Shown here: positions 13,738 to 19,597 of the stretch, piece after piece | How the letters are laid out: each line of letters opens with the position of its first letter | Numbering within the stretch: position 1 is the first letter of the stretch | DNA from: an uncultured Thermococci archaeon | GTDB lineage: Archaea > Methanobacteriota_B > Thermococci > Methanofastidiosales > B48-G16 | Assembly: GCA_964595645.1 (NCBI GenBank) | Contig: CAZQQT010000005.1 | Span: 32,001-96,000, forward strand | Direction: 5' to 3' | Length of the DNA stretch: 64,000 bases | Program-made: the position numbers and the translations under genes | Notes under the pieces: model-generated | Databases searched by the model: none | The model's input: the letters and a program-made list of their open reading frames with translations, nothing else | What the model was told of the DNA's origin: nothing

Positions 13738-13866
13738 TCAGTCACCTTTTATCTCTTTACTTCATCTCATTTTTTAAATCTTGTTGTAGATATGAGAAAG
13801 GAGTACTCAGTAGGACTACTGTGTTTCGCAGTAGTGTATTTAAACATCCAAAGCGAACTACACGCA

Positions 13867-14835
13867 ATGATCTCCCTTGGGATAGAGAGCACGGCACACA
13901 CCTTCGGTGTTGGTATTGTCACAGAAAAGGAGGTACTGGCAAATGAAACTTCCGTCTATTCAGGGAAGGGGATACATCCACGGAAGGCGGCGGATCACCA
14001 CGCCGACACCGCAAAGGATGTGCTCGACAGTGCGCTGAACACAGCGAACCACTCACTGGACGACATCGATCTCGTCAGTTTTTCCCAGGGACCGGGAATC
14101 GGGCCGTGCCTGAGGATCGGTGCTACAGTGGCAAGAACGCTTTCCCTCAGGCTCGATATACCGATTATAGGGGTAAACCACTGCGTGAGCCATATCGAGA
14201 TAGGGAAGTTTACCACCGGCGCAACGGATCCAGTAACACTTTACGTCTCCGGAGGAAATACACAGATCATCGCCTACGCCTCTCAACGGTATCGAATTTT
14301 TGGAGAAACACTCGATATCGGACTGGGAAATATGCAGGACAGCTTCGGGAGAGCGATGGGCTTGAAATTCCCCTGTGGGAAAACGATCGACGAGTTACTT
14401 GCGAAAGGACGCATGTATCTACAGCTTCCCTATACTATTAAGGGGATGGATTTCTCCTTCAGCGGCATGCTCACAGACGCACTACGGTACAAAGAAACAG
14501 AAACAATCGAGGATATCACCTTCTCCCTAATGGAAACAGCCTTTTCTACGGTGGTAGAGGCCTCCGAGAGGGCGCTGGCACATACGGAAAAGCACGAGCT
14601 GCTGTTGACAGGCGGCATGGCCGCGTCCCCACGACTGCGTGAGATGTGTACAATCATGTGCGAGGAACGGGGAGATGAATGCTATGTGCCATCCTTCGAT
14701 CTCTGCAGGGACAATGGGGCCATGATCGCGCACCATGGACTTCTCAAGCACAACAGCGGCGCGCGGATGCACCTTAAAGATACGGTAGTACGACAGAAAT
14801 GGCGCACAGATGAGGAGGAGATCACATGGCTGTGA
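13867..14835 (+). CDS. kae1: tRNA N6-threonylcarbamoyltransferase Kae1 (KEOPS)
   Basis: LGIESTAHT, GIHPR, GPGIGPCL, NHCVSHIE, SGGNTQ and DNGAMIA; start moved to the ATG at 13867. Confidence 0.96.
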   Translation: MISLGIESTAHTFGVGIVTEKEVLANETSVYSGKGIHPRKAADHHADTAKDVLDSALNTANHSLDDIDLVSFSQGPGIGPCLRIGATVARTLSLRLDIPIIGVNHCVSHIEIGKFTTGATDPVTLYVSGGNTQIIAYASQRYRIFGETLDIGLGNMQDSFGRAMGLKFPCGKTIDELLAKGRMYLQLPYTIKGMDFSFSGMLTDALRYKETETIEDITFSLMETAFSTVVEASERALAHTEKHELLLTGGMAASPRLREMCTIMCEERGDECYVPSFDLCRDNGAMIAHHGLLKHNSGARMHLKDTVVRQKWRTDEEEITWL

Positions 14836-15500
14836 TCGGGAGGGGTGCAGAGGCGGTTCTTACCGTGGAAGATTTCAGTGATCGATACTTTCCCAGCGAC
14901 GATCTCGATATACGGGTAGTGATCAAGAAACGGATCAAGAAAGGCTACCGCAATGAGCAGATAGATCTCCATTTACGGCGATCGAGGACTGTACTGGAGG
15001 CACGGTTGATGCACGAAGCAAAAAAGTACGTGAAAACGCCAACAATCTTTGAAGTGGACACAGACGAGTGTTACATTGTGATGGAGTATATAGAAGGAGA
15101 ACGAGTCAAGGAGCTCCTTGAAAAAATTAGTCCTGAAAAGAGGAGATCAGTGTGTCATCGTATTGGAGAAATTGTGGGCAATCTGCATAGAAATGATATC
15201 ATCCATGGCGATTTGACCACCTCCAACATGATCCGTTCTTCCAGTGGGATATATCTCATTGATTTCGGACTGGGAGAGTTCTCCATAGAAATAGAAGATA
15301 AAGGTGTGGATATGCACCTTCTGAGAGAAGCACTCCAGTCCACACATTACCATCATTTTGAGGGAGACTTCAATGCAGTGATGGAGGGGTATGAAGCTAC
15401 TGTCGGTGAAAAAAGAAAAGACGAGATTATAAGAAAAATAGAAGAGATAGAGAGGAGAGGACGGTATGTCAAGAGAGATAGTATTCATCACGGGCAATAG
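14826..15500 (+). CDS. bud32: KEOPS kinase/ATPase Bud32
   Basis: GAEA, IIHGDLTTSN, IDFGL and C-terminal RGRY; follows kae1. Confidence 0.95.
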   Translation: MAVIGRGAEAVLTVEDFSDRYFPSDDLDIRVVIKKRIKKGYRNEQIDLHLRRSRTVLEARLMHEAKKYVKTPTIFEVDTDECYIVMEYIEGERVKELLEKISPEKRRSVCHRIGEIVGNLHRNDIIHGDLTTSNMIRSSSGIYLIDFGLGEFSIEIEDKGVDMHLLREALQSTHYHHFEGDFNAVMEGYEATVGEKRKDEIIRKIEEIERRGRYVKRDSIHHGQ

Positions 15501-16017
15501 GAATAAGGTTAACGAGATACAAAAGGCTATCGATCCGTTGGACTATACGGTCATACAGAACGATCTGGACTATCCGGAAATCCAGAGTACGTCGTTAGAA
15601 GATGTAGTCCGGTACGGTATCGAGTGGATCAAAGACAGTGTCGATATCTTTTTTCTGGAGGATTCTGGGCTTTTCGTTGAGCGTTTGAACGGATTTCCCG
15701 GTGTTTACTCCAAGTTTGTGTTTGAGAGCATCGGGAACCAAGGGATTCTGAAGCTCATGGAATACGTTGAGGATAGAAACGCGGTATTTAAGACAGTAAT
15801 TGGCTTCTATGATGGCGAAGCAAAAATTTTTAAAGGGCAGTGCAAAGGAAGGATAGCCAAGAGGCCAAAGGGAGGCCATGGATTTGGCTATGATCCAATT
15901 TTTATCCCGGACGGTACCACAAATACTTTTGGCGAAATGGAAACATACCAGAAGAATGAATACTCTCATAGGGCAAAAGCCTTAAAAAGTTTCATTCATT
16001 ATTTAAAAAAGAGGTGA
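15466..16017 (+). CDS. rdgB: Non-canonical purine NTP pyrophosphatase (Ham1/RdgB)
   Basis: TGNxNK, EDSGL, FPGVYS, FGYDPIF and SHR. Confidence 0.95.
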
Positions 16018-16022
16018 ATCAG

Positions 16023-16478
16023 ATGGCAAGAATGCACTCGAGAAAGAAAGGAAAATCAGGATCAACTCGTCCTCATCGGACAAAATCTCCTGGATGGACA
16101 GAATATGATGCAGAAGAAGGAGAGGCATTAGTTGTCAAATTACGGAAAAAAGGACTTTCTCCAAGTCTCATCGGCTTGAAACTGCGGGATCAGTATGGAA
16201 TCCCCGATGTCAAGCTCCTCACAGGAAAAAAGATCACGGAGATCCTGGAAGCTCACGATATGGCACCTGAGTTCCCTGAGGACATGCTAAACCTCATACG
16301 GAAAGCGGTGAAGATCCGGAAGCATATGGAGGACAACAAGAAGGACTACCACACCAAACGTGGATTGCAGCTTACAGAATCGAAAATAAAGCGGCTTGCA
16401 AAGTATTATAAGAAGAAAGGAGAAATTCCTGAAGATTGGAGATACGATCCGGAAAAAGCCGAGCTCCTTATAAGGTGA
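16023..16478 (+). CDS. rps15: 30S ribosomal protein S15 (uS15)
   Basis: [33 protein letters not shown]. Confidence 0.97.
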
Positions 16479-16479
16479 T

Positions 16480-17814
16480 TTGTTGGAAAGGATTTATAAA
16501 AGGGCAGAGAAGATTGCTTCGTTTTTTTTAGAACATTCTTCTGAGTTCGAGAAGGTGTATATTGTTTCTCACAAAGATACAGATGGCATTGCAGCAGCTG
16601 CCCTTTTGCAAATTACATTCTCCCAGTTTAAAAAGGTAGAAACAAAGATAGTATCCCAGATATACATTGATACATTGGAAGAGCTGAAGGAGGAGGTAGG
16701 CGATAACCTTGTGGTGTTTTCCGATCTCGGCAGCTCCTTTTGTACCGCGATCAACGAAAAGTTCCCTTACGCGATTATTTTGGATCACCATCCTCCCGAA
16801 GACTGTGAGGACAGCTATGTGCTGAACCCCCATCTTTTTGGGTACAATGGTGCCCATGATCTTTCGGGGGCAGGAGCCGCATATTTTTTTTGCAGAGATC
16901 TTTACCCAGAGATAAAGGAGTACAGCTACCTTGCAATTGTTGGTGCAATTGGTGATAAACAGAACAATCCGTTCCAGGGTTTGAATCGTGAGATTATCAA
17001 GGAAGGAAAGGGCATATTCCATGAAAAAGATGGAAACATCATCATCGATGTGTTGGAGGGCCATCTCAGGGATGGGGAGTACTTTTCTTCCTTACTCAAT
17101 GCCTGTGGCACCTTGAATAAAACGGATTTAGGACTTCAAGCCTGTCGTGGAGACGAAGTGGCAATAAAAAAGGCCAAAAAAGTACTCAAACAATATTATA
17201 AAGAGATAAATAGTGCCCTCAGACGGATCGTGAAGAATAAGAAGAAAATAATAGAAGAAAATAAGAATAGATCTGCGTATTTTATTGTTTCCCCAGCACA
17301 GGTAGGATTGACGGGTACCCTTTCTACTCGGCTGATCGATATTTTCAACGACAAACCGGTGATTTTCATCTCAAAGAAAGATGCCTTGAAAGTATCTGTA
17401 CGGGGAACGAAACAGCTTGTATCCCAGGGTCTGCATCTTGGTGAGGCACTGAAAAATGCTGTGGGAATAAAAGGAGAGGGTGGAGGTCATGATATCGCGG
17501 CAGGGGCGAAGTACCATGGTGATATAGAGGAGTTCATTGAGAGAGTAGATTTTGAAATAAAGAAACAGATAGGAGACAGCTTCCTGATAGAGGGAGACCT
17601 CACCATTGTATATGAAGATGGGAAAAAGGCTGCGTCCATCGCGGGTGCCATCGATGTGGACAATGAAAAACCTTTAAAAGCCACCATGATAGAAAGTTAC
17701 AGTAACGAGAACGAGTTTATCACTCGTGTACAATCAGAGAGTATAGGCACCTTTAAGAATGTGTTTGATGATATACTTGTCTGTGTGAAATCATCTGAAA
17801 CGATAGAGGAATGA
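16480..17814 (+). CDS. DHH nuclease (GAN/RecJ-Cdc45-like) fused to a C-terminal Pcc1-like KEOPS domain
   Basis: HxDTDG, DLG, DHH, GAIGD and GGGHDIAAG motifs. The last 77 aa or so have a Pcc1 pattern. Sits in the conserved S15-DHH-Pcc1-S3Ae order. Confidence 0.8.
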   Translation: MLERIYKRAEKIASFFLEHSSEFEKVYIVSHKDTDGIAAAALLQITFSQFKKVETKIVSQIYIDTLEELKEEVGDNLVVFSDLGSSFCTAINEKFPYAIILDHHPPEDCEDSYVLNPHLFGYNGAHDLSGAGAAYFFCRDLYPEIKEYSYLAIVGAIGDKQNNPFQGLNREIIKEGKGIFHEKDGNIIIDVLEGHLRDGEYFSSLLNACGTLNKTDLGLQACRGDEVAIKKAKKVLKQYYKEINSALRRIVKNKKKIIEENKNRSAYFIVSPAQVGLTGTLSTRLIDIFNDKPVIFISKKDALKVSVRGTKQLVSQGLHLGEALKNAVGIKGEGGGHDIAAGAKYHGDIEEFIERVDFEIKKQIGDSFLIEGDLTIVYEDGKKAASIAGAIDVDNEKPLKATMIESYSNENEFITRVQSESIGTFKNVFDDILVCVKSSETIEE

Positions 17815-17818
17815 GAAT

Positions 17819-18394
17819 ATGGCAAGAAGGAGTACAAGAAAAAAAGATCCATGGAAAATGAAAGATTGGTATACTGTTTACGCTCCAAAAATATTTGGAA
17901 ATCAAGAGATAGGCGAGGTACCTGCTAAAGAACCAGAGCAGATGGTCGGCAGGGTAATAGAAACGACACTTCGAGATCTCACCGGAGACTTCAAGAAAAA
18001 CCACGTAAAGTTGTTTTTCGAAGTGACAGATGTAAAAGGAACGAACGCGTATACGGAACTGAAACAGCAGGAGTTACTACGATCGTATATGCGATCCCAG
18101 GTGAGAAGGAATACCACGAAGGTAGAAGATGTTGTGGAAGTGGAGACAAAGGACGGCAGAAAGGCACGTATTCAAGTTGCCGCGATCACGCTGAAGAAGA
18201 TACAGCAGTCACAGGAGAGTAAGATCCGAGAGATTTTGGAAGATACGATCAAGAGTAATGCTTCGTCCAAAGATTTCGACGCATTCAGTCTTGAACTCGT
18301 CCTTGGGAAAACAGCTGCCGCGGCGTATCGAAAGGCAAAGAAGATTTACCCTCTCAAGCGGGTAGAAATTACAAAAACCAAGGTATTAGCGTAG
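17819..18394 (+). CDS. rps3ae: 30S ribosomal protein S3Ae (eS1)
   Basis: DPWKMKDWYTVYAP, GRVIETTL, IYPLKRVEI. Confidence 0.97.
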   Translation: MARRSTRKKDPWKMKDWYTVYAPKIFGNQEIGEVPAKEPEQMVGRVIETTLRDLTGDFKKNHVKLFFEVTDVKGTNAYTELKQQELLRSYMRSQVRRNTTKVEDVVEVETKDGRKARIQVAAITLKKIQQSQESKIREILEDTIKSNASSKDFDAFSLELVLGKTAAAAYRKAKKIYPLKRVEITKTKVLA

Positions 18395-18467
18395 GGCCCG
18401 TGGCCTAGCTGGATATGGCGTCGGCCTTCTAAGCCGAAAGTCGCGGGTTCGAATCCCGCCGGGTCCG
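18394..18467 (+). tRNA. tRNA-Arg(UCU)
   Basis: Acceptor GGGCCCG/CGGGTCC, anticodon arm TCGGC-CTTCTAA-GCCGA, T-loop GGTTCGAATCC. Confidence 0.95.
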
Positions 18468-18526
18468 CTTCTGACAGTTTAAAGGAAGAGAGACTTTAAT
18501 CGAAAACAGCTCCAATTTTCTCAATG

Positions 18527-19234: not shown

Positions 19235-19597
19235 ATGAATCAGTTCACACCCGCTCCGGTTGCTCCGACGATCTCTTTTGAGATGTTTGAGAAGATCGAT
19301 GTTCGTGTGGGAACGATTGAACGTGTCGAAGATATCCCTCGTTCAACGAACCTTGTACGGTTGATTGTGGACTTCGGCGATCACACGAGGAAAATACTAG
19401 CAGGTATAAAACAGGAACGTGAGAATCCGAAGGAGATCGAGGGAAAACAGGCACTATTTGTCGTGAACATGGAGCCGAAAAAAATGATGGGAGAGGTATC
19501 AGAGGGGATGCTGTTCGATATTGGATACCCTGATGGAATTCTTCCTGTGCTCGCTGTTCCAGAAAAACCTGTTCCCAATGGAGCGCGGTTGGGGTAA
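19235..19597 (+). CDS. tRNA-binding protein (CsaA/Trbp111 OB fold)
   Basis: IDVRVGTI, VVNMEPKKMMGEVSEGML, VPNGARL. Confidence 0.9.
   Translation: MNQFTPAPVAPTISFEMFEKIDVRVGTIERVEDIPRSTNLVRLIVDFGDHTRKILAGIKQERENPKEIEGKQALFVVNMEPKKMMGEVSEGMLFDIGYPDGILPVLAVPEKPVPNGARLG

Follow-up and report, generated by a model that had tools for sequence, protein, structure and literature searches.

A gene joining a RecJ/GAN-family nuclease to the KEOPS subunit Pcc2 in a t6A operon of an uncultured Methanofastidiosales archaeon

The operon and its fused gene

The window, by which we mean the whole 64,000-nucleotide stretch of contig CAZQQT010000005.1 analysed here, contains an operon with the gene order kae1-bud32-ham1-rps15-recJ::pcc2-rps3ae, all on the plus strand. 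The first gene, kae1 (13792-14835), encodes the TsaD/Kae1 t6A transferase, as assigned by Pfam (PF00814, 257 bits) and by its orthologs. These orthologs align only from about residue 25 of the listed ORF (window positions 13792-13866 lie upstream), and the true start is probably an internal ATG near 13867 (MISLGIEST...). It is followed, with a 10-nt overlap, by bud32 (14826-15500), the atypical RIO-type kinase of KEOPS (Pfam Pkinase/RIO1/ABC1), by ham1 (15466-16017), an ITPase-type NTP pyrophosphatase (PF01725, 166.8 bits), and by rps15 (16014-16478) for ribosomal protein S15/S13e (PF08069, PF00312). The genes from kae1 through rps15 overlap or lie 1 nt apart, and the Pfam assignments and common strand bear out the sequence-only reading, which had placed kae1 and bud32 in the same operon as the gene of interest. 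Downstream lies rps3ae (18394 being its last base, 17819 its first) for ribosomal protein S3Ae/S1e (PF01015, 220.5 bits). The last base of its stop codon (TAG, 18392-18394) is at the same time the first base of a tRNA-Arg(TCT) gene (18394-18468, plus strand, ARAGORN), and about 0.8 kb beyond the operon and this tRNA a stand-alone 120-aa tRNA-binding-domain protein is encoded (19235-19597; PF01588, Trbp111/CsaA-like).

Between rps15 and rps3ae, a single uninterrupted frame of 444 aa occupies 16480-17814. As had been claimed from the letters alone, the DHH reading frame continues past GGGHDIAAG (aa 334-342) into the C-terminal tail with no stop codon in between, and its own stop (TGA, 17812-17814) is separated by just 4 nt from the rps3ae ATG at 17819. 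The DHH catalytic domain (aa 1-179, 16480-17016) is followed by a short beta-hairpin (aa 180-189, 17017-17046; AlphaFold2 strands 180-183 and 186-189), and then by linker helices and the DHHA1 domain (aa 190-364, 17047-17571; PF02272). The last helix of the RecJ part (aa 349-364) is joined through about five residues (QIGDS, 17572-17586), delimited from the AlphaFold2 secondary structure and the alignment of Thermococcales GAN and Pcc2, to the first strand of a beta-alpha-beta-beta-alpha domain (aa 370-444), which together with the stop codon covers 17587-17814. Reading through the fused ORF, we found no in-frame ATG, GTG or TTG from the DHHA1 motif to halfway through the C-terminal domain, and so a separate Pcc protein cannot start within it.

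This differs from the usual arrangement, in which rps15, recJ, pcc and rps3ae are separate genes, as the sequence-only reading correctly stated (Makarova 2012, PMC3307487; Nagata 2017, PMC5737688). In Thermococcus kodakarensis the order is the same and the two protein families are the same (GAN, TK1252; Pcc2, TK1253; operon rps15-gan-pcc-rps3), whereas there they are two polypeptides and here they are one.

Identity of the two halves

Both domains of the nuclease half exceed their Pfam thresholds (DHH, PF01368, aa 25-139; DHHA1, PF02272, aa 279-361). In an alignment of 35 orthologs, H31-D33-D35, D82, D102-H103-H104, G158-D159 and the DHHA1 GGGH (334-337) are invariant, and by these motifs the RecJ/GAN-family DHH exonuclease is catalytically intact. 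The DHH-DHHA1 exonuclease core is shared with Methanocaldococcus jannaschii RecJ2 and with bacterial RecJ, to both of which the structural model aligns; these, however, belong to another lineage of the RecJ tree and carry no Pcc domain. Two NCBIfam equivalog models are missed (RecJ_archaeal, 270.9 vs. 360 bits; GAN_nuclease, 198.9 vs. 850 bits). The position downstream of rps15 is that of the arCOG00427_II neighbourhood (Makarova 2012, PMC3307487).

Compared with T. kodakarensis GAN (5ghr), the fused protein aligns across DHH, linker and DHHA1 (phmmer, 185 bits; aa 4-179 to GAN 9-188 and aa 184-363 to GAN 277-467), with no counterpart of approximately GAN 189-276. This is the helical bundle of the CID-like domain, defined in GAN as residues 169-288 (Oyama 2016). 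The Pfam DHH_CID model (PF21763) likewise matched none of the fused proteins scanned, whereas Thermococcales GAN and the second RecJ of this genome, a 466-aa protein (L024:3161-4561), both match it. In the AlphaFold2 model of the full chain (pLDDT 89, pTM 0.77) only the beta-hairpin of aa 180-189 stands at the CID site. Absence of a CID is a feature shared with bacterial RecJ, whose OB fold takes the spatial position that the CID has in GAN (Oyama 2016).

Loss of the CID and gain of the C-terminal domain go together in every fused protein among the sampled genomes. The RecJ parts of the fused proteins group as a single clade in the RecJ tree (SH-aLRT 88; subclades 99-100), apart from both the CID-bearing paralogs of the order (100) and Thermococcales GAN (100), and for that reason both changes most likely happened once. 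GAN of T. kodakarensis binds Gins51, and the residues making this contact are only partly kept here (F55-S58 replaced by VETK, and L313/V315/A316/L319 by L/L/Q/R), at positions which vary among families of the order; a GINS gene is encoded in the genome. MjRecJ2 is reported not to bind GINS (PMC11193018). Given that the fused enzyme has lost its CID and that the genome has another RecJ with this domain, it is a less likely candidate for the Cdc45-like component of the replisome.

The C-terminal tail had been called Pcc1-like. It does belong to the Pcc1 family: residues 373-444 match the NCBIfam model NF011470 'KEOPS complex subunit Pcc1' with 44.4 bits (E = 1.9e-11; cut-off 27 bits) over profile positions 3-76 of 76. 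The Pfam Pcc1 model (PF09341), which had been proposed as a check, by itself stays below its gathering score (17.5 vs. 20.9 bits), and the assignment also required the NCBIfam model, a comparison of folds and PDB searches in both directions. An AlphaFold2 model of the isolated domain (pLDDT 87) has the beta1-alpha1-beta2-beta3-alpha2 topology of the Pcc1 fold, and Foldseek places Pcc2 structures 7a66/7a67 at the top, followed by Pcc1 chains of KEOPS structures (TM 0.80-0.84; 0.80 for the top match, 7a66), with KH domains among the weak matches.

However, the domain is not canonical Pcc1. Archaea have two paralogs, Pcc1, which binds Kae1, and Pcc2, a fifth KEOPS subunit which pairs with Pcc1; the two are told apart by box 2 of helix 2, where Pcc1 has N-S/T and Pcc2 has D/E-D/E, and TK1253, the gene adjoining gan, is a Pcc2 (Daugeron 2023, PMC9889334). 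Helix 2 of the fused domain reads FDDIL, with the acidic pair D430-D431. A 75-aa free protein encoded at G000:C3:134868-135080 reads FNSYM at the same place; it is the only other Pcc-family gene in the genome, and its neighbours, identified by eye from their translations, are Brix, L37ae and an exosome Rrp42-like gene. Since an earlier profile had included a Thermococcales Pcc2 and was thus partly circular, the PDB was searched with the single fused sequence, and phmmer matched only Pyrococcus abyssi Pcc2 (7a66/7a67_B, E = 0.007). The same search with the free 75-aa protein matched only Pcc1 chains (E = 4e-18 to 6e-8). The acidic pair, the Pcc2-only PDB matches, the gan-pcc2-rps3ae position and the presence of a canonical Pcc1 elsewhere in the genome establish that the fused domain is the paralog Pcc2. 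The statement that there is no free pcc gene thus holds for the locus and fails for the genome.

The closest characterised relative, P. abyssi Pcc2 (7a66, 7a67; Daugeron 2023), has the same fold, the acidic box 2 pair and the VDN of box 1, and likewise co-occurs with a canonical Pcc1. It is a free protein of 83 aa with ~26-28% identity to what is here the C-terminal domain of a 444-aa nuclease.

Distribution, origin and later history of the fusion

Our collection holds 34 genomes of this order (the Methanofastidiosa/Theionarchaea group), divided into four families, and in three of the four the fusion is kept. All six genomes of the organism's own family (f1) have a fused ortholog of about 442-445 aa with 68-71% identity, one of them split across two contigs. 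It was found in six of the seven genomes of family f4 (448-462 aa, 32-37% identity), the seventh genome being 77% complete, and in 3/3 genomes of genus g6 in family f3 (407-418 aa, about 30% identity). These same three families keep ham1 upstream of rps15. A search for homologs of near-equal length was dominated by ordinary RecJ and missed the fused orthologs of 30-37% identity, which were recovered by searching the genomes and by profile searches of longer proteins.

Among longer proteins of a 5.8-billion-protein set, a profile of the Pcc2 domain found 27, all of them DHH/DHHA1 plus Pcc2 (331-451 aa, one partial); those carrying an organism name trace to MAGs of Methanofastidiosa or Theionarchaea, and two of the 27 are automatically named 'KEOPS complex subunit Pcc1'. 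Searched exhaustively by HMM, 1.84 billion representatives yielded 287 matches, the best 150 of which comprise five RecJ-fused clusters, with free proteins of 61-110 aa making up the remainder. Three long representative matches were rejected as Pcc fusions: Pfam identifies P0149 and P0150 as Ig/YDG repeat proteins, and P0171, with eight matches that are all short and partial, was taken to be spurious. Another, P0168 (603 aa), begins with a Pcc1-family domain (aa 3-69; 23.7 bits in Pfam), which is followed by ~530 residues with no clear family, an architecture different from RecJ::Pcc2.

Across the 35 orthologs, whose identities range from ~30 to 70%, D394-N395 of Pcc2 box 1 and the helix 2 residues G423, T424, N427, D430, D431, C435 and S438 are invariant, and the junction is also conserved. 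With catalytic and Pcc2 residues both invariant, the two halves are under purifying selection.

The likely parent genes can be seen in a Thermococcales relative, where rps15, GAN (479 aa), Pcc2 (83 aa) and rps3ae follow one another, with 17 nt of overlap between the GAN stop and the Pcc2 start. In T. kodakarensis the gan/pcc overlap is 23 nt, and rps15-gan-pcc-rps3 form one transcript (Nagata 2017, PMC5737688). The fusion probably arose when the recJ stop was lost from such an ancestral overlapping gan-pcc2 pair, for which a small indel within the overlap would suffice, and selection has since maintained it in three or more families of the order.

The fourth family, f2 (17 genomes), which we take to be Methanofastidiosum, encodes Pcc2 as a free protein immediately before rps3ae and lacks a RecJ linked to S15. 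The order of genes there is dnaG primase-pcc2-rps3ae (L020:1675-3858, G022:C11). Gene trees disagree on where this family belongs: the Kae1 tree puts it outside the fused families (support 89), and the tree of CID-bearing RecJ puts it with f4 (support 87). A lineage-specific signature, GT[FL]KNTxDD, is common to its free Pcc2 and the fused domains, which argues that the latter do the ordinary job of a Pcc2. One further genome (G007) has the arrangement ham1-rps15-pcc2, with pcc2 overlapping rps15 and the RecJ part cleanly absent (L025:1224-2417, G007:C185). As G007 is nested inside f3 in the Kae1 tree (support 98), the absence of RecJ is to be read as a secondary loss.

The fused protein and KEOPS

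Besides kae1 and bud32 in the window, the genome encodes Cgi121, Sua5 and the free Pcc1, and KEOPS is thus complete. We suggest that the gene at 16480-17814 probably encodes a nuclease-carrying fifth KEOPS subunit, formed by the merging of overlapping gan and pcc2 genes. Tethering of the nuclease to KEOPS, which the sequence-only reading had proposed along with a possible role in tRNA quality control or a link to DNA metabolism, would be a plausible consequence of the fusion and its operon context. The Pcc2 domain has retained the residues that it has in common with the free Pcc2 of family f2, no other Pcc2 is encoded in the genome, and pairing with Pcc1 very likely persists. More broadly, the fusion suggests that the products of two genes which have long been neighbours cooperate physically.

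In 7a66 Pcc2 is a homodimer, and in 7a67 its strand beta1 pairs with Pcc1. The fused domain would pair with the free canonical Pcc1 through beta1-beta1 contact and the C-terminal helices, and this Pcc1 in turn binds Kae1. A Cgi121-Bud32-Kae1-Pcc1-Pcc2 complex would thereby carry an active single-strand exonuclease, in 1:1 stoichiometry, on its distal, Gon7-like side. The linker of 5 aa sets a 365-aa body beside the very strand that pairs with Pcc1, and a steric clash with Pcc1 may occur. The sequence-only reading had stated that Pcc1-family proteins bind Kae1; the paralog described as the Kae1 contact is Pcc1, although in vitro Pcc2 could replace it, in a complex that was inactive.

The nuclease is more likely to assist KEOPS, acting on RNA/tRNA or on DNA ends, than to be the Cdc45-like subunit of the replisome, with RNA/tRNA surveillance and t6A-independent functions at DNA ends as candidate roles. 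Cgi121, which holds the 3' CCA tail of tRNA, sits at the end of KEOPS remote from Pcc1, and a role in trimming of tRNA 3' ends is therefore not favoured. KEOPS functions at DNA ends that are independent of t6A have been described (Wu 2023).

It may instead be that two adjacent, translationally coupled genes fused with little consequence, leaving Pcc2 in KEOPS and RecJ elsewhere, in repair or replication, with no cooperation beyond co-expression. Where parent genes overlap a single indel fuses them, and the retention of Pcc2 without a fused RecJ in family f2 and in G007 indicates that the two functions are separable, with the nuclease dispensable for that of Pcc2. In the same vein, gan can be deleted in T. 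kodakarensis with pcc left intact (Nagata 2017, PMC5737688). Against a near-neutral fusion speak its persistence over three families down to ~30% identity with both halves strongly constrained, the location of the gene within t6A operons, and the retention of the recJ-pcc neighbourhood across Archaea (Makarova 2012, PMC3307487), usually a sign of functional coupling. We regard this explanation as unlikely.

Less probable still is co-option of the Pcc2 fold as an accessory of the nuclease which no longer serves KEOPS, the domain having replaced the CID as a dimerisation or KH-like nucleic-acid-binding module comparable to the OB fold of bacterial RecJ. Such an exchange would fit the coincidence of CID loss with Pcc2 gain, the spatial equivalence of the CID and the OB fold, the homodimers formed by Pcc2 (7a66), the weak structural resemblance to KH domains, and a whole-chain pTM compatible with a docked domain. 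However, free Pcc2 with the same signature residues is kept where RecJ was lost, which implies a RecJ-independent function, the Pcc2-specific residues of boxes 1 and 2 are invariant, and no second Pcc2 that could serve KEOPS was found in the genome. Conservation of the fusion, together with retention of free Pcc2 after RecJ loss, weakens both of these explanations. Finally, a frameshift error merging two separate genes, in favour of which speaks only the prior expectation given by overlapping parent genes in relatives, is practically dismissed by the same unbroken frame, with a conserved junction, in no fewer than 15 genomes assembled independently of one another and in 27 protein clusters that databases hold from several sources; the uninterrupted orthologs of three families, which the sequence-only reading had proposed to look for, speak against an artefact as well.

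Fused KEOPS subunits have precedents in the Kae1-Bud32 proteins (MJ1130, Haloferax volcanii) and the Pcc-GNAT proteins of Methanococci. In Kae1-Bud32 both partners belong to KEOPS, whereas the fusion described here joins one KEOPS subunit to a nuclease not known as a part of KEOPS. Our literature searches found no description of a RecJ-Pcc or RecJ-KEOPS fusion, and the papers returned dealt only with the gene neighbourhood; both components are well known, and the architecture and its implication are new. In Supplementary Dataset 1 of a survey of archaeal KEOPS subunits, Theionarchaea (2 genomes) and Methanofastidiosa (3 genomes) are scored as having Pcc1 and no Pcc2 (pcc2 = 0; Daugeron 2023, PMC9889334). 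These entries can be corrected, as both groups have Pcc2: family f3, which bears the Theionarchaea name, carries it in the RecJ fusion, hidden within a 'DHH phosphoesterase', and family f2 encodes it as a free ORF of small size.

Though recognised in 2012, the recJ-pcc neighbourhood has had no explanation, and KEOPS has t6A-independent functions in DNA repair and at telomeres. As a natural fusion, conserved in both halves and located in t6A operons, RecJ::Pcc2 makes a partnership of nuclease and KEOPS directly testable. If the fusion is taken as a Rosetta stone, RecJ/GAN (Cdc45-family) nucleases would associate physically with KEOPS through Pcc2 in Archaea generally, an extension we put forward tentatively and think rather doubtful. 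Were it true, it would explain the ancient rps15-recJ-pcc2-rps3ae neighbourhood, and the exonuclease would be a direct molecular link for the t6A-independent roles of KEOPS; reported in yeast and proposed for Sulfolobus, these roles concern the resection of DNA ends, recombination, and the maintenance of telomeres or replication.

Further associations between nuclease and t6A genes are visible within the order. Family f4 has a tight minus-strand cluster of kae1, a yrdC/tsaC-like gene (215 aa), bud32, ham1, rps15 and recJ::pcc2 (L026:168-3401, G011:C1), so that genes for both steps of t6A synthesis and the fusion are found in one operon-like unit; kae1 adjoins sua5/tsaC in families f2 and f3 too. 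The CID-bearing RecJ of the present genome overlaps by 4 nt the 3' end of sua5, the gene for threonylcarbamoyl-AMP synthase (G000:C10:25120-27560; L024:2121-4561). This adjacency, seen in all six genomes of family f1 and not in family f3, is a second connection of a RecJ nuclease to the t6A pathway, and together with the placement of the fusion in t6A operons it means that RecJ-family genes are repeatedly linked to t6A genes in this order.
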